Shown here: in pieces, positions 2,625 to 41,595 of the stretch
Position numbering within the stretch: position 1 is the stretch's first letter
Layout: each line of letters opens with the position of its first letter
From: Hormoscilla sp.
GTDB taxonomy: Bacteria > Cyanobacteriota > Cyanobacteriia > Cyanobacteriales > Desertifilaceae
Assembly (NCBI GenBank): GCA_051439505.1
Contig: JBFRWI010000198.1
Coordinates: forward strand, 1 to 55,758
Reading direction: 5' to 3'
DNA: 55,758 nucleotides
The notes under the pieces: generated by a model
The model's input: the letters and a program-made list of their open reading frames with translations, nothing else
Database searches by the model: none
What the model was told of the DNA's origin: nothing
Position numbers and translations under genes: made by a program

Positions 2625-2625
2625 G

Positions 2626-3723
2626 TTAAGGTCTGCCACCAAATTGATTTTTTTCCCAAAGTTGTCCCAAACTATAGTCTTCCAGCCATGATTCTAACTC
2701 ACTAGATTGCAAGCGGGTGAGAGTTGTGGCCCCATCTTCTAATTCTGTTACCAAAATATCTTCTGGTTCAAAATGATCTAGAAGCAGGGGTGATTGTGTA
2801 GAAATAATAATCTGAGTTTCTGTAGCAGCAGCTTTGACCATACTTGCCAACATTGTAATGGCATAAGGATGTAAACCCAGTTCTGGCTCATCTAAAATGA
2901 TCGGAGAAGGGCGTTCTTGGGCGGGTTGTAGTAATAAGGTCGCCAGACAAATGAAGCGTAATGTCCCATCAGATAGAGACGAAACATCAAAGTATTGGTC
3001 GGAGAGTTTGTGCATCCATTCTAGGCGAATTTTATTTTGATTGCGACGCAAGGTAACTAATTGAAAGTCATCGAAAAAAGCGGCTACCCTTCGCACTGTA
3101 TTGCGGATTAAACGATACTTAGACGGATGTTGTTCTCTTAATAGAAGTAGATAGGCAGGAAGATTTGAGCCATCCGATCGCAAAAAATGATTATCATTAA
3201 CATCTGCAATTCGTTTCATGGGTGACTGTTCGCTCGTATCGTGAAAGTGATAAATTCGCCAATCATCAAGACTTGACTGTACCCAACTAACATTCCCTTC
3301 ACAAAGTTGACTAATGCCAGCTTCACCGTTCGCTGCCTTTAAGGACTCATAGTCTGGTTCTGGGTGGCCTTGTTTATCCCAAAACCAACAGCTTTCATCT
3401 TTGATATAAAGTTCATCGATATCTGTCGATCCTAACAATATTTTATACCCGTTTACCTCGGAAATAAACGATATTTCGATCTCGATTTCTGGTGTAACTT
3501 TCGAGCCAAAGTGCAAGATTGTATCTGCTCCACCTCTTTGGGCTGTATAATTTCTTAACTTACCACGGCGAATAGCATTTAAGAAGGAAAATACTTCCAC
3601 AAAGTTAGATTTTCCCGACCCGTTAGCCCCGATCGATATATTGATGGGGCGTAGTTCTAGCTTCTCGATCGCCCGGATACTCCGGAAGCCCTTGATGGAA
3701 ATATAATCTAGGTAATGTTGCAT
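2626..3723 (-). CDS. AAA_21/AbiEii-like ABC-type ATPase
   Basis: IKGFRSI, Walker A GANGSGKSN, signature LSDGTLRF, Walker B ILDEPELGLHP, STQS. Start could also be 3750. Confidence 0.9.
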   Translation of the reverse strand: MQHYLDYISIKGFRSIRAIEKLELRPINISIGANGSGKSNFVEVFSFLNAIRRGKLRNYTAQRGGADTILHFGSKVTPEIEIEISFISEVNGYKILLGSTDIDELYIKDESCWFWDKQGHPEPDYESLKAANGEAGISQLCEGNVSWVQSSLDDWRIYHFHDTSEQSPMKRIADVNDNHFLRSDGSNLPAYLLLLREQHPSKYRLIRNTVRRVAAFFDDFQLVTLRRNQNKIRLEWMHKLSDQYFDVSSLSDGTLRFICLATLLLQPAQERPSPIILDEPELGLHPYAITMLASMVKAAATETQIIISTQSPLLLDHFEPEDILVTELEDGATTLTRLQSSELESWLEDYSLGQLWEKNQFGGRP

Positions 3724-3912
3724 AGTGTTAGTTTTAGCTGATGCTGGCATTTATTGGGAGTGGAAATTTGCAGCCGGGTCCTCAATACTTGCGATCGCGA
3801 CACGTTGCTGCTATTCTACGATATAACGGATCGGGCTTTGGTTAAGGCATTTTCTTCAAAGAGGCCCGGATAAATCCAGACCTCTCCTATAATCATAGCA
3901 CCTAAGTGAGCG

Positions 3913-6067: not shown

Positions 6068-6598
6068 TTATTCTACTCGATTCAGGCAAGTTTCCAGCTC
6101 TTGAGCCAGAACCCGGACCTGGGGCTCCCGCATCATAGCATAATGGTCCCCAGGAATCCTATAGGTTTCCAACTCCCCGGCGACTAAAGAATTCCAGCCT
6201 CGCTCTCCGACTTCATCCCTCGCACAAAACAGAACTGTCCGACCAGAATAAGGCTGAGGTTGATAATCGTACATGGCTTTGAGATTAGCTTTGAAGACCT
6301 CGAACAACCGACGGATCTGTTCGATGCCGATTTCTGGCGGCAAGATCCCAAGGCGTTTGGCTTCTTGCCAGATGCGTACCAATTGCTCCTCGTATGGAAG
6401 TTGCTGGAGTTCCTGGGCAGAAATTGATAACTGCTTACCAAAGATACTCCCAAGATCGGTAAAGAGAGAATTTGCCAGCATTGCCTCATCTATCTGTTGA
6501 AGAGAAGTGCTTGGTGCATAACTATCGATTAAAGCCAGCAGCGCCACTTCCTGCCGGGATGCTTGCAACTGCTGTGCCATTTCCCAAGCAACGACACC
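6068..6598 (-). pseudogene. Truncated NRPS thioesterase C-terminal fragment (paralogue of the TE at ~7711-8240)
   Basis: GVVAWEMAQQLQAS..IPGDHY aligns by eye with the end of the adjacent NRPS. It begins just after the GWSLG catalytic motif, at a MITE boundary. Confidence 0.88.
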
Positions 6599-6789
6599 GG
6601 GAGCATCTCAGATTTGCAAATTGACAAACAATCAAATATTTTTGATTGACATTTATGATTGGAGACGATAGCATAGATTGAGCAAAACATCCTCTGTGCG
6701 GTACTTTCCCCAATTGCCATTAGCAATTAGCAATTAGCAATTAGCAATTAGCGAAATTTATTGCAAAAGTGCAAAAGTGAGATGCACCC
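6599..6789. mobile_element. MITE with GGGWGCATCTCA / TGAGATGCACCC ends carrying (TAGCAAT)n; related copy at 51839-51980, partial ends at ~20172, 31891, 40788
   Basis: Terminal inverted repeats visible. No TSD at this copy. Confidence 0.75.
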
Positions 6790-6863
6790 GGATTAAATTT
6801 TGCTAATTTAACCGATTTGCTGTATAGTAGTTAGGGTCGTCTTATTATGTCTAAAAAACTGCT

Positions 6864-7145
6864 ATGCTTCAAGAGCAAAGGTTCCATTTAGATGAGAAGC
6901 AAGTTCAATTTTTGGCTCGCTATCGAGAATACGGGTTTAAAGATAAAAGCCAACTGGTGGTGACAGCTTTGCAGCGCCTCCAGTTAGCGCTCGAAGGCAG
7001 AGACTTGCCAGAGGAAGCATTAGAAGAATCTTCTAGGGTTGAGGTGGGAGAGTTATCTGGGATGCTGTACCGAGCAGATAGAAAAACCGTTTCTTTAGAA
7101 GAAATGGAGGAAGCGATCGCTAAGTGTGCGGGAGAGTCGGCGTGA
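6864..7145 (+). CDS. Putative antitoxin (VapB-like)
   Basis: Small gene whose TGA overlaps the GTG start of a PIN toxin. C-terminus LSGMLYRADRKTVSLEEMEEAI is typical of such antitoxins. Confidence 0.7.
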   Translation: MLQEQRFHLDEKQVQFLARYREYGFKDKSQLVVTALQRLQLALEGRDLPEEALEESSRVEVGELSGMLYRADRKTVSLEEMEEAIAKCAGESA

Positions 7146-7519
7146 AAGGATTAGATACCAATGTTATCGTGCGCTTTTTGGTGCGGGATGACGAAGAGCA
7201 GTGGGAAATTGCCGATCGCTATCTCAATGAGGCTATGCTTGCTAAGGAACGGTGTTTTGTTAACAATATTGTTCTGTGCGAGGTGGTTTGGGTTTTGCGA
7301 ACCAGTTATAAACTAAGTCGAGAAAAGCTCGTTGAAACTTTGGAAAAGATGTTAAAGGCGAATCTTTTTGCTTTTGAAAATCGAGAAGCTATAGAGTGGG
7401 CAATAGGGCAAATTAAATCTGGCAGCGCCGATTTTTCCGATTATTTAATTGCTCGATTAAACCAATTAGCCGGATGTCAGGAAACTGCATCTTTTGATGT
7501 CAAACTATGTCAGTTATAA
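7142..7519 (+). CDS. vapC: VapC PIN-domain toxin
   Basis: GLDTNVIVRFL, VLCEVVWVL, ADFSDYLI, ASFD. GTGA overlap with the antitoxin. Confidence 0.88.
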   Translation: MKGLDTNVIVRFLVRDDEEQWEIADRYLNEAMLAKERCFVNNIVLCEVVWVLRTSYKLSREKLVETLEKMLKANLFAFENREAIEWAIGQIKSGSADFSDYLIARLNQLAGCQETASFDVKLCQL

Positions 7520-7710
7520 GGAATAAAGCAACTCCGCTCCGAGTAGAATAGCAGAGCGATCGCCCTTTCCACCGCCATTAAGAAGCCAGGTTTTTCTGTC
7601 CGAAAAACCTGGCTTCTGCGTTAAAGACTTAACTCGTCATCCCGCCCCCTCGCTGTGGACGGGATGATGCTATTCCTCATTCCCCACTCTAACCAAGATT
7701 CTCCTACAGA

Positions 7711-10700
7711 CTACTTTTCGAGGCAAGCATCTAACTGCTTTGCCAAAACTCCGACATCGGGTTCGCGCAAAATCTCATAATGGTTTCCAGGAATGGTATA
7801 AGTTTCCAGCGTCCCCGCAGCTAGAGAACTCCAACCACGATCTGCGGCTTCGTTGCGAGCACAAAATAAAACTGTCCGACCCGAATATGGTTGAGGTCGA
7901 TAGTCGTACATCGCTTTCAGGTTAGCTTTGAAAACCTCGAACAACCGACCCATCTGTTCGATACCGATATCTGGCGGCAAGATATTTAGACGTTTGGCTT
8001 CAGCGAGAACGCGATCTAATCGTTCCTCCGGTTGGAGTTGCTGGAGTTCCTGGGCTGAAATTGATAACTCTTTGCCAAATATCCCGCCGAGATCGGTTAC
8101 TAGAGAATTAGTCCCAAAAGCCTCATCGATTTGTTCAGAAGAAGTGGTTGGTGCATAACTATCGATTAAAGCCAGCAGCGCTACTTCCTGCCCCGATGCT
8201 TGCAACTGCTGTGCCATTTCCCAAGCAACGACACCACCTAATGACCAACCCCCCAGATAATACGGTCCTTGGGGTTGAACCCCTTGCAAGGCTTCAATAT
8301 AGCATGTTGCCATCTCCTCGATCCGAGTTAAAGGCACCGAGTCTCCATATAAACCAGGCGACTGCAAACCGTAAAATGGTCGATCGCTTCCGAGATGACG
8401 GGCTAAGGCAGCGTAGCACAGAACGTTCCCTCCCACTGGATGCACGCACCAAAAAGGCGGCAAATCACCTGCCTTCTGAATTGGGACTAAGGGGGAAAAA
8501 GGTTGCCCATCGGTGGCAGTATTCAATAAACTGGCTTGGCGTTCGATGGTAGGTTCGGTAAACAGAGTTGCCAAGGGCAGCCGAGTTCCCAACTGTTGTT
8601 CTATACGAGCCATCAACCTTGTGGCTAATAGGGAATGACCGCCCAAATCAAAGAAGTTGTCTCCCACTCCCACCCCAGGAATATTGAGAACTTCCGACCA
8701 GATTTGTACCAGTTGCAGTTCTGTGGTGGTGCGGGGGGCTGTTGCTTCTGCTTCCCGAGTAGAAGCATCCGGTGCGGGGAGGGCGCGGCGATCGCACTTT
8801 CCGTTGGGAGTTAGAGGTATTGCGTCTAAAAAGACGAAAGCACTCGGTACCATGTAGTCGGGTAGCTTGGTTTTCACGAAACCGCGCAGATCGGAGGATG
8901 TCACTTCTTCTGTAGTAACGATATAGGCTACGAGGCGCTTATCCCCGGGGGTGTCTTCTCGTACAATAACGACTGCTTCTCGTAGATCTGGGTTTTGAGT
9001 TAAGGTAGCTTCAATTTCTCCGAGTTCGATGCGGAAGCCTCGAATTTTCACCTGGTTGTCGATGCGTCCGATAAATTCAATGTTGCCATCTCGGAGGTAG
9101 CGTGCCTTATCCCCGGTTTTGTAAAGGCGATCGCCCGGTTCGTCGCTAAAGGGGTTGTCGATAAATTTTTGCTCGGTTAATTCCGGGCGGTTGAGATAAC
9201 CTCGGGCTAACCCTGCGCCGCCGATATGCAGTTCGCCGGGTACGCCGATGGGGACGGGTTGGAGATGCTTGTCCAGAATATAGATTTGGGTGTTGGAAAT
9301 GGGACGACCGATCGACACTGACACATCTTCGTTGCTCTCTATCGACTCCGAAGCACTTACCGGGCAAGCCGTTGACCAAACTGTAGCTTCCGTAGGACCA
9401 TATAGATTCCAGAGGGAAGAGCCTTTTCCTAGCAGGTTAGCGGCGAGTTGCCCGGATAAGGCTTCGCCACCACAGATAATTTTCAACTGCGGGCTACCTT
9501 GCCAACCTCCGGCCAGCAGCATCTGCCAGGTTGCCGGGGTAGCTTGCATGGCGGTCGCACCAGAATGCTCTAATTTTGATAACAGCCGTTTGCCATCAGC
9601 AGCTTCCTCTCGACTGGCTAAGACAATTTTTGCTCCCACTATCAAGGGTAAGTAAATCTCTAGGGCCGCAATATCAAAACTGATGGTCGTGACGGCTAAG
9701 ATAACGTCAGCATCCGTTAACCCTGGCGCTATTGCCATCGAACAGAGAAAGTTGACTAGAGATTGATGGCAAATTTGCACTCCTTTGGGTTTTCCTGTAG
9801 AGCCGGAGGTGTAAATGACATAAACTAAGTTGTCAGGTTCTGCTAGAACCAGGGGATTGCCAGTGCTGTGGGTAGAGATCGATTCCCAGTCACTATCTAA
9901 ACATACGACGCGATCGGGTAAGGACGGCAATCGGACGGCCAATTCCTTCGTGGTTACTAATGCCGCTGCTTGGGAGTCAGAAAGTATGTATCCTAAGCGA
10001 TCGCTCGGATAATCTGGGTCTAATGGCAGGTATGCTCCACCGGCTAAGAGGATGCCCAACAGTCCTACGATCATCTCAATAGAGCGATGGACGCAAATAC
10101 CGACCAGCACCTCTGGCCCCACTCCCAAGCTTTGCAGGTAATGGGCCAATTGATTCGCGCGATCGTTTAGATCCCGATAGGTCAGTTGTTCCTTATCAAA
10201 AACCACTGCCACCGCATCCGGACTGCGTTCCACTTGCTCTGCAAATAACTGATGAATGCACTGGGTCTGAGGATATTCCGCTTGGGTATCGTTCAACTCT
10301 ACTAACAACCGATCGCGTTCCGATCGCGTCAGCAAGGGTAGTTCGCCAACTCGCCCTTGGGGGTTGGCGACGATCGCTTCCAGCAAGGTTTGGAAATGGC
10401 CAAGCATCCGCCGGATAGTTCCTGCTTCAAACAAATCGCGATTGTATTCCCAAAATCCACTCAACCCTGCTTCCGTTTCCTCCATCGACAGGAAAAAATC
10501 AAATTTAGCTATCTCGCTTTCGAGGGGCAGCCAATTAAACTTCACGTCTGGTAACTCCAGAGGTGCCATCGGTGCGTTTTGTAGGGCAAACAGTCCCTGA
10601 AAAATCGGCGAGTGACTCAGACTGCGTTCCGGTTGCAATGCCTCCACCAACTGCTCGAAGGGCAAATCTTGATGGGCGTAAGCATCCAAAGCGGTCTGCC

Positions 10701-13700
10701 GAGCTTGTTCCAACAATTCCGAGAATTTATGATTCCCTTCCAAGGGCGATCGCAGGACCAGAGTATTGACAAAGAAGCCGATCTGAGACTCCATTTCACT
10801 GCGGTTGCGGTTGGCAATAGGCGTTCCCACTACAATATCCTCTTGACCGCTATAGCGATAAAGTAAGGTGCTAAAGGCGGCAAATAGGGTCATAAACAGC
10901 GTGACTCCCGAATCTTGACTGAGGCGCTTTAGCCGTTCTGTGAGTTCGACCCCAAGTCCAAAAAACTCTTTGCCACCTCGGGATGTTTGTATCTTTGGAC
11001 GGGGATAGTCCGTCGGCAGTTCTAATAGGGGTGGCACTCCTGCTAACTGTTGCTTCCAGTAATCCAGTTGTGAGGCTAGGGTTTGGGGAGTTAACCATTG
11101 CCGTTGCCAGGAAGCAAAGTCTGCATATTGGATCGGCAGTGGCGGTAAAGGTGACGGTTTCCCCAGCACATAAGCCCGATAGAGTGCTTCCAACTCGTGG
11201 TAAAAGACCCCCATCGACCAGCCATCGGTAACGATGTGGTGCATCGTCAGCAACAGCACGCAATCATCTGCTGCCAACTGCAATAGGGTAACTCGCACTA
11301 AGGGATCTGTGGCTAGGTCAAAAGGTTCTCGAACTTCTTCTAAACCCAAGCGCTGCACTTCTTTGAGTTTTCGGCCTGTTGGCAAATGCTGTAAGTCAAC
11401 AACGGGGATTTTTAGAGTGAGTTCTGGGTGAATTACTCCCAGGGGAGAACCATCTACCGCCTGATAATTGGTCCGCAAGCTTTCGTGACGGCGGACGATT
11501 TCTTGCACCGCCCTCTGCAAGACTTCTACTTGCAGCTCACCCGATAGGCGCACCCCTTCAAGCTCGTTATAGGTTAAACTGCCCTCCTGCAATTGGTCTA
11601 GGAACCAGAGTCGTTGCTCGGCAAAAGACAGGGCCCGGTCTCCATCTCGCCCAATAGCTTCTATGGGGGGCAGTTGCTGAGAGACGCGATCGCCACTGAC
11701 CCTCAATATCTCCTGGCTAAATTCTGCCACCGTAGGGGATTCAAATAACCGATGCAGGGACAGTTCGATTTTGAACGTATCGCGCACTCGCGACATCAGT
11801 TTAGTCGCATCTATCGAGTCCCCTCCCAAGAGAAAGAAGTTGTCTAATACCCCAACCTCTTCCGATCCCAATACTTCAGTCCAAATACTGAGGAGAATTT
11901 CTTCTGTGGGGGTTCGCGGTGCCACCAGTTCTACATCCAGAAGCATGCGAGATGTTTTATCTGGTGCCGGTAGGGCCCGTCGATCTACTTTGCCGTTTGC
12001 GGTCAGGGGCAGTGCCTCCAAAACGACAAATGCTGAGGGCATCATATAGTTCGGTAGTTTTTTCTGGAGGAACCTGCGCAACTGAGGCACTAATCGATCG
12101 CCTTTTCCGGTATAGGGCTGATTTGCATAAGCACTCCAAGGTTTGATACCGTTTTCTTGACTCCCAAGGGTCGCGCGATCGACAATGATGTTGGCGTCAT
12201 GCCGGACAAATACCACATCATAGTAACCGTCCGCACCGTCTCCCAACCAGGTCGTCCGCACCTCATAAGGAATCTCTGATTCCAGATCGTACCAGTCTTG
12301 GGGTTCTATGCCCCCTTGGGAAATGCTAGCCCGTAGTTCCTCCACGGTTTGAGGACAGTCGGGACTTGCTAACCGTTCTATTGCTTTTATATCTGCCCAA
12401 ATTTTGCCATTGGGAATGCCAGTAACGACGAGCATTTCTGGTGAGGTTTCTCGCAGTTGCTTTTGCACGTCAGCGATGCTCAGACTATCGGGTTGCCATT
12501 TCAGATATAACGGATCTGTTGCGTTCGTGGCTGCTTTCTTGCCGATATGAAGAACCACATCATAACGAAAACGAGTCAGTTCGTTTTGGTAGCGCCCGGG
12601 TTTCAGTTGCATTTCTACATGACTGATTTGGGGGAAATGCTGCTTCAGTGCCAGGAAGAACTGAGGATCGATATTGATTTTCTTGTCTTTGGTAATGCGT
12701 TCTTTGATGCGGTGTCGCAGTTCCACCGTAGAGAGATCCTTGGGCGCTTGGTACAACTCCACCGAAGTATGGAATGCTTCCAGTAAGGGCAAACTCAGGG
12801 AATCACCTATCCAGATCGCGCCTCCAGGTTCCACCCGCTTCACCAAATTTTCTAACACCCGCACCAGGTAATCCATGCTGGGAAACATGGAGATAACTGA
12901 GTTGATGATTATGGTATCAAAGGTACCATCTATCCCTTCTAAGTTGTCTGCTGGGGTTGGGCGAAGGGCCACCACAGACTCTAAACTGCTGCCCCTCACC
13001 TGTTCCTCGATATAACGGACTCCCTCTGCGGCAATGTCCGTACCATAGTAATGCTGACAGTAGGGCGCGATGCGAAATAACATCATCCCCGACCCACAAC
13101 CGATTTCCAGCACTCGTTTTGGCTGCAAAGCCAGAATGCGTTTTACCGTCTCTTCCACCCACTCCTGTACTTGGATTGCCGGGATAGTCTTGCCCGTATA
13201 GCTGTCGTTCCAGCCGCCAATGTGGAGGGCCGCATCCCATTCCTGGGCTGGCTTTTTGTAGGATTCATCCCATAGCTTACCCCATTTTTGAACGTGATCC
13301 TCCTCGTTGGTTTCTTCCGACCTTGATTTGTCAGGCACTACATAAGCTACCAAGCGCTTGTTTTTCCCGAGTTCTTCCCGGGCGATCGCCACCGCTTGTC
13401 CCACTTCTGGGTGTTGACCGATCGCGGATTCAATTTCTCCGAGTTCGATGCGGAAGCCCCGCACCTTCACCTGATTATCGATGCGACCGATAAATTCAAT
13501 CTTTCCATCTGGCAAGTAGCGAGCCAAGTCCCCTGTTTTGTAAAGGCGATCGCCCGATTTCTGGGAAAATGGGTTGGGAATAAATTTTTCCTTGGTGAGT
13601 TCCGGTCGGTTGAGATAACCTCGCGCTAAACCCGCCCCACCGATATGGAGTTCCCCTGTAGATCCGATCTCGACTGGTTGGAGATGGTCGTCAAGGAGAT

Positions 13701-14742
13701 ATACTTGGGTGTTACTGATGGGACGACCGATCGGGATCGACTGTACCGAATCCTTAAGAGGAGGAATTGGATAGCAACAAGTAAAAGTCGTGCCTTCTGT
13801 CGGTCCATATCCATTGATAATTTGCACCGATGGCAATGCTGACTGAGCTTTGAGAATGTGGCTAACGGAAAGGGCTTCACCTCCCACGAGTAGTTGTCGG
13901 ATGCCCGACAATGCCAATGGGCGATCGTCAATTATGGAATTGAATAATGCTGCTGTGAGCCATAAAGTTGTAATCCCATGTTTTTGGATTGCATCGCTCA
14001 AATCTTTGCTTGTCGGAACTTTTGCCGGTAAAAGAACGCACTGGGCACCATGTAATAAAGCACCCCATATCTCAAAAGTGGAAGCATCAAAGGAAATTGG
14101 AGCCGCATTCAATAATTTTTCTGACGCGCTCAGACTAACGTAGTTGACTCCAAATAACAGGCGGACAACGCCTCGGTGGATAACTGCGACTCCTTTCGGT
14201 TGGCCTGTCGAGCCGGAAGTGTAGTTAATGTATGCTAAGTTATCTGGAGTGACATCTGCAAATATTTTTTCGGAATTGGACGCTGCGATCGTCCCCCAAT
14301 CCCTATCCAAACAAACTACCTTTGCCGCACTTGCAGGCAGTTTCTCTAAATATTTCTCCTGGGTCAACAGCACCGGGACAGCCGCATCTTCAAGCATGAA
14401 GGCCAGACGCTCTATCGGATAGGCTGGGTCTAAGGGTACATAAGCACCACCCGCTTTGAGAATACCCAGAAGAGCAACAACCATTTCCAAGGAACGCTCG
14501 ACGCAAAGGCCCACTAGCACCTCTGGTCCTACTCCCAACCCTTGCAAGTAGTGGGCCAGTTGATTTGCCCGGGAGTTCAACTCGCGGTAGGTCAGGTGTT
14601 GGTCTGAAAACACCACCGCCACTGCATCGGGCGTCCGTTCTACTTGCTCTTCAAACAACTGGTGTATGCACGAATGCGGATACTCTGCGGTAGTATCGTT
14701 CCAGGATTTCAATATGCGATCGCGTTCTTTTTCTGTCAACAT
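7711..14742 (-). CDS. Two-module NRPS: A(Val, embedded N-methyltransferase)-PCP-C-A(Gly)-PCP-TE
   Basis: A cores YTSGSTGxPKG twice; MT VLEIGCGSG between A8 and A9; PCP GGDS and GGHS; C HHIVTDGWS; TE GWSLGG. Hand-read specificity codes are DAFWLGGTF(K) and DILQIGLVW(K). Confidence 0.95.
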   Translation of the reverse strand: MLTEKERDRILKSWNDTTAEYPHSCIHQLFEEQVERTPDAVAVVFSDQHLTYRELNSRANQLAHYLQGLGVGPEVLVGLCVERSLEMVVALLGILKAGGAYVPLDPAYPIERLAFMLEDAAVPVLLTQEKYLEKLPASAAKVVCLDRDWGTIAASNSEKIFADVTPDNLAYINYTSGSTGQPKGVAVIHRGVVRLLFGVNYVSLSASEKLLNAAPISFDASTFEIWGALLHGAQCVLLPAKVPTSKDLSDAIQKHGITTLWLTAALFNSIIDDRPLALSGIRQLLVGGEALSVSHILKAQSALPSVQIINGYGPTEGTTFTCCYPIPPLKDSVQSIPIGRPISNTQVYLLDDHLQPVEIGSTGELHIGGAGLARGYLNRPELTKEKFIPNPFSQKSGDRLYKTGDLARYLPDGKIEFIGRIDNQVKVRGFRIELGEIESAIGQHPEVGQAVAIAREELGKNKRLVAYVVPDKSRSEETNEEDHVQKWGKLWDESYKKPAQEWDAALHIGGWNDSYTGKTIPAIQVQEWVEETVKRILALQPKRVLEIGCGSGMMLFRIAPYCQHYYGTDIAAEGVRYIEEQVRGSSLESVVALRPTPADNLEGIDGTFDTIIINSVISMFPSMDYLVRVLENLVKRVEPGGAIWIGDSLSLPLLEAFHTSVELYQAPKDLSTVELRHRIKERITKDKKINIDPQFFLALKQHFPQISHVEMQLKPGRYQNELTRFRYDVVLHIGKKAATNATDPLYLKWQPDSLSIADVQKQLRETSPEMLVVTGIPNGKIWADIKAIERLASPDCPQTVEELRASISQGGIEPQDWYDLESEIPYEVRTTWLGDGADGYYDVVFVRHDANIIVDRATLGSQENGIKPWSAYANQPYTGKGDRLVPQLRRFLQKKLPNYMMPSAFVVLEALPLTANGKVDRRALPAPDKTSRMLLDVELVAPRTPTEEILLSIWTEVLGSEEVGVLDNFFLLGGDSIDATKLMSRVRDTFKIELSLHRLFESPTVAEFSQEILRVSGDRVSQQLPPIEAIGRDGDRALSFAEQRLWFLDQLQEGSLTYNELEGVRLSGELQVEVLQRAVQEIVRRHESLRTNYQAVDGSPLGVIHPELTLKIPVVDLQHLPTGRKLKEVQRLGLEEVREPFDLATDPLVRVTLLQLAADDCVLLLTMHHIVTDGWSMGVFYHELEALYRAYVLGKPSPLPPLPIQYADFASWQRQWLTPQTLASQLDYWKQQLAGVPPLLELPTDYPRPKIQTSRGGKEFFGLGVELTERLKRLSQDSGVTLFMTLFAAFSTLLYRYSGQEDIVVGTPIANRNRSEMESQIGFFVNTLVLRSPLEGNHKFSELLEQARQTALDAYAHQDLPFEQLVEALQPERSLSHSPIFQGLFALQNAPMAPLELPDVKFNWLPLESEIAKFDFFLSMEETEAGLSGFWEYNRDLFEAGTIRRMLGHFQTLLEAIVANPQGRVGELPLLTRSERDRLLVELNDTQAEYPQTQCIHQLFAEQVERSPDAVAVVFDKEQLTYRDLNDRANQLAHYLQSLGVGPEVLVGICVHRSIEMIVGLLGILLAGGAYLPLDPDYPSDRLGYILSDSQAAALVTTKELAVRLPSLPDRVVCLDSDWESISTHSTGNPLVLAEPDNLVYVIYTSGSTGKPKGVQICHQSLVNFLCSMAIAPGLTDADVILAVTTISFDIAALEIYLPLIVGAKIVLASREEAADGKRLLSKLEHSGATAMQATPATWQMLLAGGWQGSPQLKIICGGEALSGQLAANLLGKGSSLWNLYGPTEATVWSTACPVSASESIESNEDVSVSIGRPISNTQIYILDKHLQPVPIGVPGELHIGGAGLARGYLNRPELTEQKFIDNPFSDEPGDRLYKTGDKARYLRDGNIEFIGRIDNQVKIRGFRIELGEIEATLTQNPDLREAVVIVREDTPGDKRLVAYIVTTEEVTSSDLRGFVKTKLPDYMVPSAFVFLDAIPLTPNGKCDRRALPAPDASTREAEATAPRTTTELQLVQIWSEVLNIPGVGVGDNFFDLGGHSLLATRLMARIEQQLGTRLPLATLFTEPTIERQASLLNTATDGQPFSPLVPIQKAGDLPPFWCVHPVGGNVLCYAALARHLGSDRPFYGLQSPGLYGDSVPLTRIEEMATCYIEALQGVQPQGPYYLGGWSLGGVVAWEMAQQLQASGQEVALLALIDSYAPTTSSEQIDEAFGTNSLVTDLGGIFGKELSISAQELQQLQPEERLDRVLAEAKRLNILPPDIGIEQMGRLFEVFKANLKAMYDYRPQPYSGRTVLFCARNEAADRGWSSLAAGTLETYTIPGNHYEILREPDVGVLAKQLDACLEK

Positions 14743-14776: not shown

Positions 14777-14896
14777 CTACTTTCGTTGCAGGCACTTTCC
14801 CACTATAACGGGCGATCTAGCTTTTGTCAACCCTGCTGTTTTATTTTTGTTGAAAATCTTCACATAGTCTAAAATTATTACTTTCGGCTTATTCAT
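14777..14896 (-). pseudogene. Probable stub of the ATPase partner gene (MNKPKVIIL...)
   Basis: ATG overlaps the 3' end of the ATPase. A beta-strand-like start is followed by sequence that contains the NRPS promoter. Only 39 aa. Confidence 0.45.
14802..14830 (-). promoter_or_regulatory. Sigma70-type promoter for the NRPS
   Basis: TTGACA (14830-14825), 17-nt spacer, TATAGT (14807-14802), about 60 nt upstream of the NRPS ATG. Confidence 0.7.
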
Positions 14897-15998
14897 GGAT
14901 CCACCCCCGCGCCACCAACTCGGAAATGGGCAGTCCCGTATCGTTATCCTTGCTGATGCGTTTAACCCGAACGGGACTGTTTTGCTGGCGATCGAACCAA
15001 TAGCCCACGGGCGATGCCAAAAGATAGTCAATCAATATAGGATGATGAGAAATCAGCAAAGCTTGGGTTTTTCCTTCGCTACAGAAGTCATAAAGTTGCA
15101 TCAACCAAGGTTGGATCTCTGGTAAAGCCAAAAAGTTTTCTGGTTCGTCAATGCACAGGGTATAATCCTCAGACTGGGTGCAGTAAATTAACGTGTAGAG
15201 AGCGATCAGTACCCGCTGACCATCAGAAAGTTTTCCAAATCGATATGCAATGTAATTTTGCCGATCGCCTGCTCTAGAAAAATACAACTTGAGAATCTTG
15301 TTTGGTAGACCGGCATCAGCAAATTCAAAATAGGAGAATCCATCGAAAATCTCTTTTAACTCATGGGTGAGTTGAATAATTTTGCCCTGATTCTGAGACA
15401 GATAGCGATACCAAGAAACGAAGTTTTCCATACTTACCGATAAATGCGTTTCTTCTCCTTCGCTATTATCGACCATCAGAGTCGGGTTAATTTGTACAAT
15501 GATGAAACGATCTATTCTTTCTTTGAACCCATTCAGTTTAATCGTCTCCTTTGTAGAATTTAGTAATGGCAGCACTGACTGAACCCCGTTCAAGGAAAAC
15601 TGCTGAAGTATATTGCTATTTTCATGGTACAATGTCACCTCTCCAGATTCAAACTTGAGCAAAGGTTGCTTGTCAAACCACAAGCGTTCCTGTTGGACAA
15701 AAGCAGAGTTTTTTTTCAGATGTTCGATAAAAAGCTCATATTTGTAAATGCCCTCATTTACGGCAATTTCTAACTCGAAGCTTTGGATAGGAGATGTCTG
15801 CCAGCAGGTACAATCATCGGCATTAAAAATAGCATTAACCTTGCCCTCACCACTTACAAATGATTGGATTTTTCGCAGCACATCGAAAAGGGCAGATTTC
15901 CCAGTCCCATTAGGTCCGAGAAACAAATTAATCCCGTCAACAGATAGTTCAAAATTGACAAGACATCGGAAATTATCGATATAGATTCGTTTCAGCAT
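14889..15998 (-). CDS. AAA_21-family ABC-type ATPase
   Basis: IDNFRCL, GPNGTGKS, LSDGQR, IDEPENFL, ISHHP. Confidence 0.9.
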   Translation of the reverse strand: MLKRIYIDNFRCLVNFELSVDGINLFLGPNGTGKSALFDVLRKIQSFVSGEGKVNAIFNADDCTCWQTSPIQSFELEIAVNEGIYKYELFIEHLKKNSAFVQQERLWFDKQPLLKFESGEVTLYHENSNILQQFSLNGVQSVLPLLNSTKETIKLNGFKERIDRFIIVQINPTLMVDNSEGEETHLSVSMENFVSWYRYLSQNQGKIIQLTHELKEIFDGFSYFEFADAGLPNKILKLYFSRAGDRQNYIAYRFGKLSDGQRVLIALYTLIYCTQSEDYTLCIDEPENFLALPEIQPWLMQLYDFCSEGKTQALLISHHPILIDYLLASPVGYWFDRQQNSPVRVKRISKDNDTGLPISELVARGWIHE

Positions 15999-35475: not shown

Positions 35476-35754
35476 AATTAAGAAACCAGGTTTTTTGTCA
35501 AAACCTGGTTTCTGCGCATTCCGATGTAAATACCCTCGGGTGGTTAATAGATCCAGAAGAACGATGGGTCTTAGTTTTTTTCCCGGGACTAAGCCTCAGA
35601 ATATTTGACAATAACGAAGAAGTGCTGCCAACACCATACTTTTTAGAACAACTATCCCTCACGAGCGATCGCCTGTTTGATTGTCTAAAATTATAGGTGC
35701 AACGCCAAAATATCTTGGGTGGGCAACAATACACGAGAGATTGTACCATCCTCA

Positions 35755-38700
35755 TCAGTCCCCCAAGCGATCGCATACAGCTGGGGATTTCTCTGTTTGC
35801 AGGTAATCTCGTAGCCACGAACATCCCTCTTTCTGTAAATTATTTTGTGGCTGTAAAACTTTTTCTACATTCCACCAAATCACCTTATTGTCGCTCCCAA
35901 CGGACACAAATGACTTGCCATCAGGACTGAAAGCGACACCCTTGACTGCATCGCTATGTTCGTAAAGAGCGATCGCCTCTTTCCAGCCTAGGTTCTCATC
36001 GCGCGTCCAGATTTTGACAGTGTCGTCCGCACTAACAGAAGCCATCATTTCACCATCGGGACTAAAAACAACTTCATTCACCGACTCAGCGTGTTCTGAA
36101 AAGCTATGTACAATTTTGAGCAGAATCCCATCCCGTGTCCAGAGTTTAATCCTGTTGTCTACACCGGCTGAGACAATCATCTGACCATCGGGGCTAAACG
36201 ACACATCGTTCACTGGACCATGATGCGCTGTCAGAGTTGACAGCAACGTACCGCTCTCGTTCCAAATTTTTATACTCTTGTCCGAACTCCCCGATACAAT
36301 TAGTTTGCCATCAGGGCTAAAGTGAACGCTTTTGACCTTATCGCTATGTCCTTCCAGGGTTGCTACTAAGCTGCCATCTCGCCGCCAAAGTTTAACAGTA
36401 TTGTCGTGACTTGCCGTAGCAATGAGCTGACTGTTTGGGCTAAAGGACACCCTATTGACCTTATCCCTCTCGAAAATGGTCGTTCGCAAAGTGCCATCTA
36501 GGTTCCAGACCTTAACTTCCTTGTTTCGACTTGCCGTAGCAATCAGCTGACCATCCGGGCTAAAAGCTATATCCCAGACCTGGTCAGTTTCAGGAAGGGT
36601 CATCAGCAATTTCGAGTCTCGCTTTCGCCAAACTTTAACAGTATTGTCGTCACTTGCCGAGGCAATATACTCCCCATCAGGACTGAAAGCAACTGCCCTC
36701 ACGTCATCTTGATGCTCGTAGAGTATATTCAGGAAGCTGTTGGAGTCAAATTTATTTAGTTTCCAGAGTCTCACTGTGTTGTCTTCGCTGGCAGAGGCGA
36801 TCGTCTCACCATCGGAACTAAACGAAACGCTGTTGACTTTATTTCCATGTCCAGAAAGAGTATCTAGTAAGGTGCCATCTGGCCACCACAGCTTCACGGT
36901 TCCGTCATTACTAGCCGTTGCGATCGCTGAGCTGTCGGGGCTGAACGCGACTGCGTTCACATGATTGCTGTGCCCTTCCAGGGTTGTGACCGAGGTGCCG
37001 TCGAGATTCCACAGTTTCACTGTTTTATCATCACTAGCCGTTGCAATCAGTTTCCCATCGGGACTGAAGGCGACGGCGTTCACCTCATCTGTGTGTCCAT
37101 CAAGAGAATATAGAAAGGTGCCATCTCGATTCCACAGCTTTACAGTTCTGTCATCACTAGCCGTCGCAATTACTTCCCCGTCGGGACTGAACGCAACTGC
37201 TTTGACCTCATCTGTGTGTCCATAAAGAGTATCTAGTAAGGTGCCATCTCGATTCCACAGTTTCAAGGTAAAGTCATTACTAGCTGTTGCAATCACTTCC
37301 CCGTCGGGACTGAACGCGACGGCTTTGACTTCATCTGTGTGCCCTTCCAGGGTTGTGAGCAAGGTGCCGTCTCGCTGCCACAGTTTCACGGTGTTGTCCA
37401 CACTAGCTGAGGCTATCAGTTCTCCATCGGGGCTGAAGGCTATATCGTTGACCGATCCTTGATGCCCCTTCAACATCTGCCGTTGTTGACCGTCCCTATC
37501 CCAGAGTATGACATTGTTGTCTGCGCCACCCGAAGCAATCATTTTACCGTCGGGACTAATGGCAACGGCGATCGCCCCTGCTTTATGTCCTGAGAGGCGA
37601 TTATACTCCCGAACCCCGAAAACCGCTTGCTGAAGTGCTCCGTCAACAGCAGATTTAGTTTTTTGACTTGGATCTTCGAGCCTTTGCAGTGCTTCCTTTG
37701 CCTGGAGTGCTTTCAGCAGGGCCTCGAAATTTTTATCGAAGGCATCGAACGCTTCTGAAGATTTAGCCTCTGCGGTAGCTTCGGCAGCTAATGCCTCCTT
37801 CTTGCGAGCTAGGGCTTCCTTCCTCTGCTCCTCTGCTTCGATATACTGATTCCTAGCTTCCAATCCCAAGGCCGCAGAAACTACACCGGCTAATAACACC
37901 ACACCCAGCAAAATTTTTAGTCGTCTGGCACTTTTTTTCTCTTCTACCAGCCTCCCTTCGGCTTCTTTGCTCTTTTCCTCCTGCAACCGCAGCAGTTTTG
38001 CTTGTCGTTCTTTTTCTGCTTCGTCCGCAGAGATGATGGCTTGGTGACTTGACTCGATAAATGTCTGCTGCAAAGCTGTAGGGACCGGTTGTTTGCTTTC
38101 GGCTAAAGCGGTTGACAACCAGTTTTCGGCAACGGCAAACTCACTCCCCCGCAACAGCAAGTCAGCAGTTTTATCCCTCCGATCCCAGTCCAAGGCCCGC
38201 TGCAACCATTTAGTATGACTGCGCAGGTGTTCCCGGTCCGTATCTAGCGTCCTCACCAATTGGTTAAAATTTACATTAAAATCCCCCTGATGCCGATTAA
38301 AATCAAGCCACTGCACCTTCGCCAACTCAGGATGCAAGTCCCCAGTATTTACCTCCCGATGCAGCACCGTCACAAAGCGTTTATTCAAGGAAGCAGCATA
38401 TTCCACCTCATCCGCGCAATAGGGCGAATTCACCGATCGCGGTGAGATAATAAACAGGAAATTGTCACAGGCTTTAATCCCCTTCTTAATTTCCTGCTGA
38501 AAATCTGTCCCCTCCGCAATACTTTCCTGGTCAAACCAAGTCATCTTGCCCTGCATCTGTAAAGCATCATTCAGCTTCCTCGCCAAGTCCGAGTCCGATC
38601 GGGAATAGGAAATAAACACATCCAGGCTCTCTAATGGCGGTTGCCGCAGACTTTCAGTAATGAATTCTTCCTGTAATGGCGTGGGTGGATGTTGTCTCCT

Positions 38701-39942
38701 TTTTTGCGCCACTTTCAACCAACTTTCAGCACTCCGCAAGTTATAACCCCGCAGCAGAATGCTAGGATTATTTTGCTGCCGCTGCCACTTCAGGGCTTTT
38801 GTCAACATAATTTTATGCTCCTTGTAATAAGCTGCCTCAGTATGCAAAATCTTCAACAGTTGGCTTTCATCAAGCAGGTAATCTTCTTCTTTGACATTAT
38901 CCGTCAGGTCAATATACTGCAAATCTCGCAGGACCGTCAGTTCCTGGGTCGGGTCAGTCGATCGCACCAGTACGGGAATTATCCGCTTATTCAGCTCCAC
39001 AGCTAAGTCTAATTCTTGCTGACAGTAAGTCGAGTTGATTGAGTCAGGGGACAGTAGATAAACCAGATTATCCGCTTGTTCGATCCCTCGGTTAATCGCT
39101 TCGGTAAACGCTTCCCCCGTTTGAATATCCGTTGTATTCGTCCACACCGTAATCCCTTCTCGCCTCAGACTGTTGCGAATCTTCTCCATTGTCGCCCTAT
39201 CTTCATCGGCATAGGACAGAAATACCTGGGTCATCAAGTTGTTGGCATTCTTGATGCTTTCGGTGATGAACTCACAATGGATGTCTGCGGGAGTACAAGG
39301 AGGTTGTTCGTTTTTAAACCTGATTTTTAACCAAGCTTCCCCCTGCTGTCTCTCTTCCCCAGTTAACAAGTAGCTCGTTTGCTTTTGATGCCGCTCCCAC
39401 TCTAAAGCTTTAACTAAAAACTGGGTATGCTGTTCTACATAATCTGTATGAGAGCGGAGTAAATCGATTAATGAGGCTAATGATTTCTCAAAATCGTTTA
39501 CCCCCTCTTGGAAATACAGCGAGTTGAGCTTGCTAATTATCGGGTGCATCTTCGGATTATTGTACGTATGATGCGACCCTTCCGCTTTATAAGCTTCCCA
39601 CTGGGACGCCGTGCCCGCCGGGTTTCTTTGCTGCCATGTTTCCCGGCTAATTTCCATCACGTGTAACAGTGGGATAATGCGTTTCTTTAGTTGGCACGCG
39701 AGCTGGATTTCTTTGCGACAATAGGCAGAATTTACCGAATGAGGACTAATGATGAACAGGAAGTTCTGTGATTTTTCAATCCCATCATCTATTTGATTCT
39801 GGAAATCGACTGCCAGGGGAATGTCATTGAAGTCAAACCAGACTCGGAACCCCTGTTCTGACAAGCGAGCCTGAAGTTTTATAGCAAAGGCTTTACTATC
39901 AGCTCGTCCGTAAGATATAAAAGCATCGAACATTTCAGTCAT
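35755..39942 (-). CDS. Triple TIR - TM - WD40 repeat protein
   Basis: Three TIR units (AFISYGRAD..YCRKEI; VFLSYADED..YCQQEL; VFISYSRSD..YCADEV), hydrophobic helix LKILLGVVLLAGVVSAALGL, about 14 GH..V..VAFSPDG..D..VKLW repeats. GGAGG SD. Confidence 0.93.
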   Translation of the reverse strand: MTEMFDAFISYGRADSKAFAIKLQARLSEQGFRVWFDFNDIPLAVDFQNQIDDGIEKSQNFLFIISPHSVNSAYCRKEIQLACQLKKRIIPLLHVMEISRETWQQRNPAGTASQWEAYKAEGSHHTYNNPKMHPIISKLNSLYFQEGVNDFEKSLASLIDLLRSHTDYVEQHTQFLVKALEWERHQKQTSYLLTGEERQQGEAWLKIRFKNEQPPCTPADIHCEFITESIKNANNLMTQVFLSYADEDRATMEKIRNSLRREGITVWTNTTDIQTGEAFTEAINRGIEQADNLVYLLSPDSINSTYCQQELDLAVELNKRIIPVLVRSTDPTQELTVLRDLQYIDLTDNVKEEDYLLDESQLLKILHTEAAYYKEHKIMLTKALKWQRQQNNPSILLRGYNLRSAESWLKVAQKRRQHPPTPLQEEFITESLRQPPLESLDVFISYSRSDSDLARKLNDALQMQGKMTWFDQESIAEGTDFQQEIKKGIKACDNFLFIISPRSVNSPYCADEVEYAASLNKRFVTVLHREVNTGDLHPELAKVQWLDFNRHQGDFNVNFNQLVRTLDTDREHLRSHTKWLQRALDWDRRDKTADLLLRGSEFAVAENWLSTALAESKQPVPTALQQTFIESSHQAIISADEAEKERQAKLLRLQEEKSKEAEGRLVEEKKSARRLKILLGVVLLAGVVSAALGLEARNQYIEAEEQRKEALARKKEALAAEATAEAKSSEAFDAFDKNFEALLKALQAKEALQRLEDPSQKTKSAVDGALQQAVFGVREYNRLSGHKAGAIAVAISPDGKMIASGGADNNVILWDRDGQQRQMLKGHQGSVNDIAFSPDGELIASASVDNTVKLWQRDGTLLTTLEGHTDEVKAVAFSPDGEVIATASNDFTLKLWNRDGTLLDTLYGHTDEVKAVAFSPDGEVIATASDDRTVKLWNRDGTFLYSLDGHTDEVNAVAFSPDGKLIATASDDKTVKLWNLDGTSVTTLEGHSNHVNAVAFSPDSSAIATASNDGTVKLWWPDGTLLDTLSGHGNKVNSVSFSSDGETIASASEDNTVRLWKLNKFDSNSFLNILYEHQDDVRAVAFSPDGEYIASASDDNTVKVWRKRDSKLLMTLPETDQVWDIAFSPDGQLIATASRNKEVKVWNLDGTLRTTIFERDKVNRVSFSPNSQLIATASHDNTVKLWRRDGSLVATLEGHSDKVKSVHFSPDGKLIVSGSSDKSIKIWNESGTLLSTLTAHHGPVNDVSFSPDGQMIVSAGVDNRIKLWTRDGILLKIVHSFSEHAESVNEVVFSPDGEMMASVSADDTVKIWTRDENLGWKEAIALYEHSDAVKGVAFSPDGKSFVSVGSDNKVIWWNVEKVLQPQNNLQKEGCSWLRDYLQTEKSPAVCDRLGD

Positions 39943-40025
39943 TATGGTACCTCCACAAATATCTGGCTAAAACCATTATAGAGCGAGAGTTGCTCCGATT
40001 TGCGATCGCGCCTTATGGCCCCAAG

Positions 40026-40661
40026 CTATGCTGTTTCCTTCTTCCTCATAGGAGATGGGAGATTTGGGGTTCCCGACGCACTTACCGGGCGAGACAAAGA
40101 GGAAGGAGTTCGCCCCTGGTTTTCTTGCTGTTGTTTTTCTTTGTTGGCCTTTTCATCGAGTAGATCCATGAATGCTTGCACATCTTCTTGGATGAACTTT
40201 TCAATTCGGAAAGCGAAGGTAGAATAGGCTTGCATGTGGTCGGGGTAGTCTTGATAAGAGCCACTTAATTGCAAGAATTTCCACGCCTCGCTTTTTAAGG
40301 ACTCGGCTGTTTTCCGGTATGTAGTGTATTTGTCGCCAAAATGAAAATACTCCTCGACTGCGGCGCAGATCGCCACCATCTGGCTGAGGAAAAAGGTAAT
40401 CCAGCCAATATATACTCCGAATTGGTTATCATTGAAGTTCAGACTTACCAAGGCGGGAATCATCACGCCGCCAACAATGGTCATCAGGCGGAGGCGGGTT
40501 GACCATTTACTCGCCCGATCGGCCTTACCTTCCAACCACAATAGCTGATCCAGCCAGCGGGATTTCATAAACCGCTTTTGTGCATCTGGGAGTTCCAGCT
40601 CATCTATGATCTCCGTAAATTCCTTTTTTAAGTATTCTCGATAAGGATTTTTACTTGCCAT
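40026..40661 (-). CDS. SLATT/DUF4231-family two-TM protein
   Basis: RWLDQL.W.E.KA, TM1 LRLMTIVGGVMIPALVSL, TM2 WITFFLSQMVAICAAVEEYF, YRKTAESLKSE.W.F.QLSG.Y. AAAGGAGG SD before ATG 40661. Confidence 0.85.
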   Translation of the reverse strand: MASKNPYREYLKKEFTEIIDELELPDAQKRFMKSRWLDQLLWLEGKADRASKWSTRLRLMTIVGGVMIPALVSLNFNDNQFGVYIGWITFFLSQMVAICAAVEEYFHFGDKYTTYRKTAESLKSEAWKFLQLSGSYQDYPDHMQAYSTFAFRIEKFIQEDVQAFMDLLDEKANKEKQQQENQGRTPSSLSRPVSASGTPNLPSPMRKKETA

Positions 40662-40892
40662 CTTGCTAGCCTCCTTTCTCTCTATTGCTCTGGCGATGGC
40701 CTTGCACAATTTTTCAGCCCCAATTCCTGGCTGCTGATTTTTCCCCAGCTTAGCATATTTCGCTCGTTCGTCTTTCGCTTAAATCTGGAGATGCACCCGG
40801 CTATCAACTACTTATCACCACACCCCGCTCGACGGGTGTGGTCAAAACCCGTATATTGAGATTTGGGACAAGCAATTGTCAATTACTATTAC

Positions 40893-41093
40893 TTAATAGG
40901 AAATTCTTGAATGCTTCCAGAGCCTAGAAGGCAATGGGGGCAAGGATCTCAGCCGATGAAGAGGATCGAATTCCCCAGACCCAGGAACGACGAAACTGGG
41001 TCCAGGCTCGACGAAACTGGGTCCAGGCTCGACGAAACCAGAGCCAGGCTCGACGAAACTGGGTCGGTGGATCTGCAATACTCGATCGACCAT
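40893..41093 (-). CDS. 66-aa micropeptide with four PSFVEPG-type heptads (21-bp repeats at 40981-41064)
   Basis: Perfect TAAGGAGGT SD 7 nt before ATG 41093; same strand as its neighbours. Confidence 0.55.
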   Translation of the reverse strand: MVDRVLQIHRPSFVEPGSGFVEPGPSFVEPGPSFVVPGSGEFDPLHRLRSLPPLPSRLWKHSRISY

Positions 41094-41428
41094 AAGCATT
41101 ACCTCCTTAAGTTATGCTGCGGGTTTTGTCAAGGAGGGGACTTCCCTGGCCAGGATAGTACGGAACCCCAGAGGGAGCAGGGAGCAGGGAGCAGGGAGCA
41201 GGGAGAGGGGAGCGTTCTTGAGGGGTCCGAAACACCAAGAGCGTGAGTCCGAGAGTCGATTTTATGCATGATGCACATATCTTTTAAGATGTCGGCGTAT
41301 TATTAATGGACCGACGCTCTAGAACTTGCGAAACCTGGTTTCTGTGGTCAAAGCATTGATATCTCGTTGATAGCGACATGAGAAACCCGGTTTCTAGCCA
41401 TCACGCGACCGATGTCCTAGGCGGCGAC

Positions 41429-41554
41429 GGGTGTGGTCAAAACCCGTCGATCATTCATTGGCCCTCCCAGTCGCCGGATCCCCCCAAACCCCCCCTTCCG
41501 TTACAAGGGGGGGTTTGGGGGGGATCGGGCGATCAACTACTTTTGACCACACCC
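41429..41554. mobile_element. GGGTGTGGTCAAAA-family MITE, opposite orientation to the 5912 copy
   Basis: Both TIRs and the same C/G-rich internal hairpin; no TSD visible. Confidence 0.85.
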
Positions 41555-41595
41555 GCACAAAGTGGACAGCCTAGGCACTGCCCACCCGGAGGCGT

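Follow-up and report, generated by a model that had tools for sequence, protein, structure and literature searches.

The window analyzed here, a 55,758-nucleotide (nt) stretch of Hormoscilla sp. (assembly GCA_051439505.1, contig JBFRWI010000198.1, positions 1 to 55,758), carries on its minus strand two co-oriented genes, one for a small SLATT membrane protein and one for a large multi-TIR protein with the layout of a transmembrane (TM) receptor. The upstream gene (40026..40661) encodes P0002, a 211-amino-acid (aa) SLATT_1/DUF4231 two-TM protein and predicted membrane effector, as judged from Pfam, NCBIfam, and its hydrophobic helices; after a gap of 83 nt, the second gene (35755..39942) encodes P0001, a protein of 1395 aa in which profiles, hydropathy, and a structural model resolve three repeats of a TIR domain plus a helical module, then a coiled coil, a TM helix, a helical cap, and 14 WD40 repeats. 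Both start codons are preceded by a GGAGG ribosome-binding site, 8 nt before the ATG of the SLATT gene (40670..40674, minus strand) and 7 nt before that of the TIR gene (39950..39954, minus strand), and a scan of the pair for promoters and terminators gave nothing decisive on co-transcription. These results agree with an earlier note on this DNA, which had described two co-oriented genes with strong Shine–Dalgarno sites, three TIR domains that each keep a Glu at the catalytic position (E78 in YCRKE, E310 in YCQQE, E512 in YCADE), a single hydrophobic helix (residues ~675–695), and about 14 WD40 repeats (14 stretches found); the hidden Markov model search that it proposed matched TIR_2, WD40, and DUF4231/SLATT_1 alike. 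What it overlooked is the repeat unit, a TIR domain joined to a helical module of ~70–95 aa.

P0001 belongs to the TIR_2 family (PF13676), with three matching stretches (Pfam, E 1.6e-84, 280.9 bits against a cut-off of 28), a TIR fold in a confident model, and Glu at the catalytic position. Alignment defines three units on the minus strand: unit 1 (aa 1–236; 39235..39942) consists of TIR1, a family-specific insert of ~35 aa, and helical module 1; unit 2 (aa 237–438; 38629..39234) of TIR2 and helical module 2; and unit 3 (aa 439–636; 38035..38628) of TIR3 and helical module 3. The modules are all of a W..LLRG..AE.WL type, and they are followed at 37858..38034 by a coiled coil (aa 637–674) and the single TM helix (aa 675–695), recognized by hydropathy (peak 2.3) and in the model, with a basic N-terminal side. 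An AlphaFold2 model of residues 1–700, built from 20 sequences (predicted local distance difference test score, pLDDT, 87; predicted template modeling score, pTM, 0.81), has a continuous helix from 623 to 697 leading into the TM segment, and a fold search with the three-unit model returned single TIR domains only, from Hydra TRR-2 (best), SARM1, SPARTA TIR-APAZ, and AbTir. The TIR trio of the earlier note stands as three domains but not as equivalent ones: among 99 three-TIR anchor proteins, the Glu of TIR1 (E78) is kept in 99, together with invariant S10, Y11, W35, D37, and C75, whereas that of TIR2 (E310) is kept in 91 and lost in 8, and that of TIR3 (E512) is kept in 94 and lost in 5. TIR2 is the least conserved of the three (mean majority frequency 0.63), and single-TIR relatives best match unit 3 (matches covering query residues ~440–635). 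TIR1 is, on this pattern of conservation, the likeliest catalytic TIR of P0001. Other chains depart from the three-unit form, with five to seven TIR units in relatives P0003, P0018, P0022, P0023, L082, and L103, and an extra N-terminal nucleoside deoxyribosyltransferase-like domain in the distant relatives P0186, P0229, and P0239.

Module 3 with the coiled coil, TM helix, and cap aligns to the segment that follows nSTAND1 in five proteins of the same genome (hhalign probability 98.2%, E 4.7e-14), modules 1 and 2 alone reaching only 16–22%. Since module, coiled coil, TM helix, and cap are homologous to this post-NTPase part, P0001 can be viewed as an NTPase-less cousin of the membrane nSTAND1 proteins. 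Pfam finds no NTPase family in P0001, which has no Walker A string, and a GxxxxGK[ST] string occurs in 1 of 119 other homologs. The statement in the earlier note that the protein has no P-loop NTPase and is not a STAND/NLR protein holds as regards the NTPase, yet it missed a membrane chassis common with nSTAND1. Membership in the STAND/NLR group (Avs, bNACHT, nSTAND1) was rejected because the P-loop STAND NTPase is absent; the post-NTPase helical module, TM helix, and repeat sensor of STAND-type proteins are all present in P0001.

Beyond the TM helix lie the 14 WD40 repeats (aa 776–1356; 35875..37617, minus strand; Pfam E 8e-166), which are in register, form the variable part of the protein, and would fold into two 7-bladed propellers outside the membrane. 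A TM segment follows the last module in 93 of the 95 anchors long enough for the test, and 83 of these 93 have an excess of K/R on the TIR side. Among 150 proteins taken as the best representatives at 50% clustering, a TM segment is present in 139, and the C-terminal part is WD40 in 78 (own profile), CHASE2 in 10, and something else in 62. Of these 62, 28 were scanned, giving Cache-type domains (5, two below the curated cut-off), divergent propellers (4), FGE-sulfatase (3), WG repeats (2), DM9 (1), CHASE2 (1), pentapeptide plus FHA (1), and no family (13), with two proteins in two classes. CHASE2 and Cache domains are extracytoplasmic sensors, and their exchange for the WD40 ectodomain supports an orientation with the TIR inside and the C-terminus outside. 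The TIR domains are predicted from these sequence features to be cytoplasmic and the WD40 sensor to lie outside the membrane. The Toll-like arrangement suggested in the earlier note is borne out as a receptor-like layout (TM segment in 93/95, K/R bias, ectodomain swaps) but runs in the reverse orientation, with the TIR at the N-terminus. Proteins of 3xTIR-TM-CHASE2 form precede a DUF928 gene at eight loci (L081, L083, L084, L086, L094, L098, L130, L134), usually with CHAT-TPR and ShlB-type secretion genes nearby.

A paralogous 3xTIR-TM-WD40 gene, also overlooked by the earlier note, lies elsewhere in the same genome (G000:C155:312-4604). Its product is 81% identical to P0001 in the TIR part and 48% in the WD40 part, the sequence around its ribosome-binding site is the same, and its contig ends 311 nt upstream. 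No TIR_2 genes other than the window gene and this paralog were found in the genome.

P0002 matches DUF4231 in Pfam (E 7e-29) and SLATT_1 in NCBIfam (101 bits, cut-off 41), and its two hydrophobic helices (~56–77 and ~81–103) place it within that family. Residues R35, Q39, R58, Y115, R116, E120, and K123 are conserved in 24 of 24 aligned sequences; the C-tail is of low complexity, with no fused enzyme. The P0002 model is of modest confidence (pLDDT 65), a fold search with it led only to generic helical bundles, and a profile search of the PDB gave no real relative of SLATT. Among phage records, P0002 has only weak matches (23–28%), in 8 streptococcal phage or satellite records. The nearest relatives of P0002 (L223, 73%; G268, 70%; G288, 67%; G111, 65%) all lie in SLOG-patatin-3xTIR-WD40-SLATT clusters, and in a FastTree tree the window TIR part falls together with those of G268 and G111. 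A complex prediction of the cognate SLATT and LSDAT pair from G268 scored 0.00, which gives no verdict and is counted neither way. Elsewhere in the Hormoscilla genome, a tandem pair of DUF4231 proteins carries an additional hydrophobic hairpin at the N-terminus and has no linkage to TIR (G000:C174:55974-58041; L159, L160).

To place the pair among its relatives, ~20 kilobases (kb) around 120 matches were surveyed together with six further loci and two own loci (L001 and L004 being dropped as duplicates), with SLATT, LSDAT, and hydrolase genes counted by domain-only profiles. Of the 106 multi-TIR loci, 30 have a SLATT gene no more than 5 kb away (29 of 105 if the window is left out), and at 20 it is directly adjacent; by genome the count is 24 of 54, which is the safer figure because three locus pairs are tandem receptors sharing SLATT genes. 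The linkage spans 10 of 15 families, in upstream, downstream, and divergent layouts. Chance neighbors can be dismissed as an explanation, as the expectation is only 0.3–0.7%, and the SLATT linkage claimed in the earlier note, which would have fallen had homologs elsewhere lacked it, thereby stands. Within the same 5 kb, an LSDAT_prok SLOG gene occurs at 19 of the 106 loci, a patatin gene at 6, and a wall-hydrolase-type domain at 15; at the 20 single-TIR loci the counts are 6 for SLATT, 5 for SLOG, and 11 for hydrolases.

Co-occurrence across the 301 genomes of the order follows the same lines. The N-terminal TIR part matches 81 genomes at E up to 1e-20, often several times per genome and with single-TIR relatives included, a P0002-like SLATT is found in 71, and LSDAT in 67; all three are present in 54 genomes and none in 211. 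TIR and SLATT coincide in 62 genomes against 19 expected, and TIR and LSDAT in 62 against 18, counts that are descriptive and not P values, kin not being independent; LSDAT is missing in 8 of the 62 genomes with TIR and SLATT. Seen from the SLATT side, at least 38 of 83 P0002-like genes lie no more than 10 kb from a listed TIR match and 46 lie within 10 kb of LSDAT; at least 64 are near one or the other and 19 near neither, among the matches listed. Five genomes have SLOG and SLATT but no receptor match, with other TIR_2 genes in three and none in two. Receptor homologs also occur in Cytophagales and Beggiatoa-like organisms, and a single TIR unit retrieves 1718 clusters at 50% identity (E up to 1e-30).

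The best solved match of the LSDAT profile is the N-terminal region of TRPM2 (E 2e-17), a region that binds ADP-ribose. LSDAT is a well-conserved protein with one gene copy in 64 of its 67 genomes; it is fused to SLATT at two loci (L072, L148), and the LSDAT protein matched none of the NCBIfam and PADLOC models. Linked patatins keep the GGGxRG, GTSTG, and DGG motifs in 8 of 8 cases and match PADLOC phospholipase effector models of CBASS type, below the equivalog cut-off. Of 41 SLATT-domain open reading frames listed (tandem loci counted twice), 15 carry GH19, phage-lysozyme, or C39_2 plus GH19 domains joined C-terminally to SLATT, as Pfam confirmed on representatives. Examples from several cyanobacterial families (L098:11943-13352, L065:1000-2439, L073:12978-15176, L117:11147-12751, L181:8657-10054) have the appearance of a holin and endolysin in a single protein. 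A clear hydrophobic stretch at the N-terminus is not seen in stand-alone C39, GH19, and M15 neighbors (below 1.5 in 25 of 26), and such signal-peptide-less wall hydrolases are, by analogy, like phage lysins that need a hole.

The stretch that bears the pair (35693..41593) lies between the gene for cytochrome oxidase subunit III and a 575-aa epimerase-like gene; none of 4 same-genus genomes has an equivalent stretch at that position. In these congeners, the oxidase (cox) operon and the 575-aa gene are 1.9–2.8 kb apart, with other small genes and no SLATT/TIR between them, and searches of the four genomes for the TIR module, SLATT, and LSDAT gave no match in any. The two genes were thus either acquired together in the window genome or lost together from its congeners, at a site that varies. 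Neither insertion-sequence ends nor a clear target duplication could be found at the cassette, and a 14-nt sequence present at both 35501 and 41331 resembles a palindromic repeat of the dispersed kind. Abutting the cassette, 35535–35692 is a 158-nt remnant of the 3' end of a ~200-aa gene, presumably Uma2-like, whose intact form occupies the site in all four congeners. The region upstream of the SLATT gene contains short tandem repeats (40960–41064 and 41172–41206, with units of 21 and 7 nt) along with several inverted repeats that are dispersed. Plasmid-borne copies of the family adjoin transposases, a methyltransferase, or AbiEii genes. Farther away, the window contains a nonribosomal peptide synthetase (A-methyltransferase-T-C-A-T-TE, 2343 aa) with an adjacent thioesterase (6068–14742), as well as candidate defense or toxin–antitoxin genes at 1935–3750 (AAA_21 ATPase and DUF4276) and 14889–15998 (a second AAA_21 ATPase).

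We lean, if only slightly, toward a reading of these sequence data in which SLATT is opened by an ADP-ribose-type signal that comes from a TIR under receptor control. A ligand outside the membrane would bind the WD40 propellers and cluster or twist the receptor; inside, TIR1 would be switched on and, with TIR2 and TIR3 as partners, would convert NAD+ to an ADP-ribose-type messenger; and the messenger would open the neighboring SLATT protein, with arrest or death of the cell as the result. In most relatives the LSDAT SLOG protein would be the messenger-binding subunit, while in the window genome SLATT might bind the messenger itself, as proposed for ThsH of Thoeris type VII. Direct binding, or else a SLOG gene in unassembled DNA, is called for because LSDAT was not found in the Hormoscilla assembly (232 contigs). 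One effector module could serve several receptor paralogs with different outer domains.

A number of observations weigh against this reading. Neither LSDAT nor the linked patatin was found in the own genome, which is 93% complete. SLATT is absent within 5 kb of 76 of the 106 multi-TIR loci, and of 46 of the 69 loci with 5 kb on both sides; 11 of the 81 TIR genomes have neither a P0002-like SLATT nor LSDAT by the queries used. The window neighbors are cox and suf genes with no defense island, and the CHASE2 versions stand mostly beside DUF928, CHAT, and two-partner-secretion genes, like ordinary signaling proteins. P0002 reaches only E 0.009 against the PADLOC 2TM effector, the PADLOC check recommended in the earlier note ended with none of the curated defense models passed by the pair, and membership in Thoeris type III was rejected, as ThcB4 scored 113.8 bits against a cut-off of 220. 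Finally, among 24 stretches with SLOG-SLATT away from a listed TIR match, 16 loci distant from such matches were drawn, and in the 7–18 kb examined none of the 16 had a TIR gene. With no TIR in these spans at any of the 16, the SLOG-SLATT effector pair appears to have an independent life. The earlier note's pair as a system stands as regards linkage, but it forms only part of a larger module that also takes in LSDAT-SLOG, patatin, and wall hydrolases, and most receptor loci have no SLATT within 5 kb.

At 3 of these 16 TIR-less loci, a SLATT-TPR-S protein with a weakly TIR-like domain lies upstream. Proteins of this kind, ~1060–1090 aa long and directly upstream of SLOG-SLATT (L151:10191-13457, L183:10715-13897, L186:4673-7924, L188:10666-13827), contain two SLATT domains, a TIR-like domain (weak PADLOC TIR match) that we take to be TIR/deoxyribohydrolase-like, TPR-S, and a C-terminal FSGHMID domain, and they are possible alternative signal makers. 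FSGHMID also stands alone directly after two receptors (L089, L104), and in one family TM-dCache proteins of ~720 aa follow SLOG-SLATT (L177:10050, L178:5398 and 7683, L179:6444, L145:16016-18238); a YPFD string in L175 is reminiscent of pentameric ligand-gated channels. These facts are better explained by several signal makers drawing on one common effector module than by a dedicated pair.

Three rival explanations deserve consideration. The strongest, which we nevertheless regard as unlikely, is nonlethal signaling, in which an environmental or developmental cue reaches the receptor and the messenger tunes SLOG-SLATT ion conductance together with local wall remodeling, for example in filament breakage. 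CHASE2 and Cache ectodomains are the small-molecule sensors of ordinary signaling proteins, LSDAT has the single-copy, well-conserved character (64/67 genomes) that such a role would suggest, and the window neighbors are housekeeping genes. The distribution of the receptor argues otherwise, being patchy (81/301 genomes, absent in 4/4 congeners) with several paralogs per genome and fast-changing WD40 repeats, as do the plasmid copies beside transposases, methyltransferase, or AbiEii genes, and the partners SLATT, patatin, and lysin-type enzymes are typical effectors of conflict systems. On our main reading the purpose would be defensive.

It is less probable still that the receptor is itself the effector, its clustered TIR array depleting NAD+ while SLATT acts in parallel as an effector that just happens to lie in the same island. 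The chains have three to seven TIR copies, the three-unit model is ordered (pTM 0.81), most receptor loci stand without SLATT, and the structural neighbors include the NADases SARM1, SPARTA TIR-APAZ, and AbTir, all of which would suit such an array; however, linkage and co-occurrence with a SLOG nucleotide-binding domain and SLATT fit a messenger, and TIR1 alone is invariant, the Glu being lost from TIR2 in 8/99 and from TIR3 in 5/99. The weakest rival, that the window copy descends in reduced form from a SLOG-patatin-TIR-SLATT operon and, its SLOG subunit being lost, no longer works as a pair, accounts for the SLOG and patatin genes beside all four nearest SLATT relatives, neither found in the own genome, and for the different gene order with SLATT upstream in the window, but we consider it improbable given two intact frames with strong Shine–Dalgarno sites and all conserved residues, the 8/62 TIR and SLATT genomes that do without LSDAT, and an incomplete assembly (93%, 232 contigs) in which the contig of the C155 paralog ends 311 nt upstream.

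If a receptor-gated TIR does signal to SLATT, a TM receptor would couple events outside the inner membrane, such as phage adsorption, predator attack, or wall damage, to a TIR messenger, a functional parallel of Toll signaling; in the parts of the literature available to us, Thoeris-type systems comprise TIR proteins for which no membrane-spanning sensor is described. The linked LSDAT is a small, soluble bacterial homolog of the N-terminal domain of TRPM2 for which an upstream enzyme can be proposed, and for these reasons its ligand is directly testable. Fusion of SLATT to lysin domains hints at a testable means by which filaments could lose cells in a programmed way. A bolder version, which we entertain only tentatively, is a complete outside-in innate-immune pathway in many cyanobacteria of the order, running from a repertoire of TM TIR receptors with exchangeable ectodomains through an ADP-ribose messenger and a free-standing TRPM2-like LSDAT to a SLATT pore; in many lineages the pore would be the holin for lysins that lack signal peptides and are either fused to it or encoded nearby, so that one cell is sacrificed and the filament cut, and the window would hold the minimal two-gene form.

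Links of this sort have been noticed before. In 2015, Burroughs et al. reportedly described SLOG-SLATT-TIR neighborhoods and predicted SLATT to be a nucleotide-responsive pore. Two Pfam names, "SLOG in TRPM, prokaryote" and "SMODS and SLOG-associating 2TM", likewise imply earlier knowledge of an association between SLOG and SLATT. Our literature search found no description of a TIR-TM-WD40 receptor with SLATT, including in the available parts of PMC7159879 (where Burroughs et al. 2015 is cited), PMC8195603, and PMC7075850; the supplementary material of the Thoeris preprint, together with the papers by Burroughs (2015) and by Burroughs and Aravind (2020), may bear on the point.

Among more remote comparisons, the membrane nSTAND1-TM proteins of the same genome share the helical module, coiled coil, TM helix, and helical cap with P0001, in which TIR units replace their NTPase. 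Toll-like receptors are analogous in being single-pass proteins with a repeat ectodomain and cytoplasmic TIR, and the TIR of Hydra TRR-2 was the best structural match; they differ in that the TIR of P0001 is N-terminal and of enzyme type and its ectodomain is WD40, not leucine-rich repeat (LRR). Membership was rejected, as the order is TIR-TM-WD40 instead of N-terminal LRR, TM, and C-terminal TIR, and the likeness is one of analogy only. TRPM2 is related to the module through the homology of its N-terminal region to the linked LSDAT, but the searches made show no relation between SLATT and the TRP pore.

The closest parallels are found among TIR-based defense systems. Thoeris types I and III also link TIR to a SLOG-domain protein, and type III has multiple TIR proteins according to the accessible text of the preprint (bioRxiv 10.64898/2025.12.03.692087); the SLOG linked to the present receptor family is instead LSDAT_prok, stand-alone or fused to SLATT, with no SIR2. 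Type I membership was rejected, as 4 of 4 linked SLOG proteins scanned are LSDAT_prok without SIR2 and no SLOG lies beside the window pair. Thoeris type VII, by the same accessible text, consists of a ThsB TIR and a ThsH SLATT protein, signals through canonical cyclic ADP-ribose, and is also reported from Cyanobacteriota (bioRxiv 10.64898/2025.12.03.692087). As in that system, so far as it is described there, the TIR gene of the window adjoins the gene of a SLATT membrane protein that carries no fused SLOG or Macro domain, in an operon-like pair (co-oriented, 83 nt apart); linkage to SLATT recurs at 30 of 106 loci. The window pair does not lie among known defense genes, as the type VII pairs did on discovery, and the recurring neighbors across its loci are SLATT, SLOG, patatin, and hydrolases. 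WD40, patatin, LSDAT, and a TM multi-TIR sensor go unmentioned for type VII in the accessible text, whereas the window TIR protein is a single-pass protein of 1395 aa with paralogs, and LSDAT is usually present in the genomes of its relatives. No ThsH model appeared among the curated-model matches of the pair, and the accessible text does not assign ThsH to a SLATT subfamily.

Shaseng combines the SasA and SasB TIRs with SLATT, and in the available portion of its report a catalytic mutation in one TIR abolishes immunity while the other is not needed (bioRxiv 10.1101/2024.12.27.630466). More than one TIR together with SLATT is a shared feature, and the single essential TIR parallels our invariant TIR1; unlike P0001, the Shaseng TIRs are separate genes under CRISPR repression, with no TM or WD40 sensor mentioned in that portion. 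By analogy, the Hormoscilla pair is likely to work like Thoeris type VII or Shaseng. The claim in the earlier note that no characterized system has this architecture needs dividing, for Thoeris type VII and Shaseng are characterized TIR and SLATT pairs and the pairing is already known; what is new, by our literature search, is the transmembrane multi-TIR receptor.

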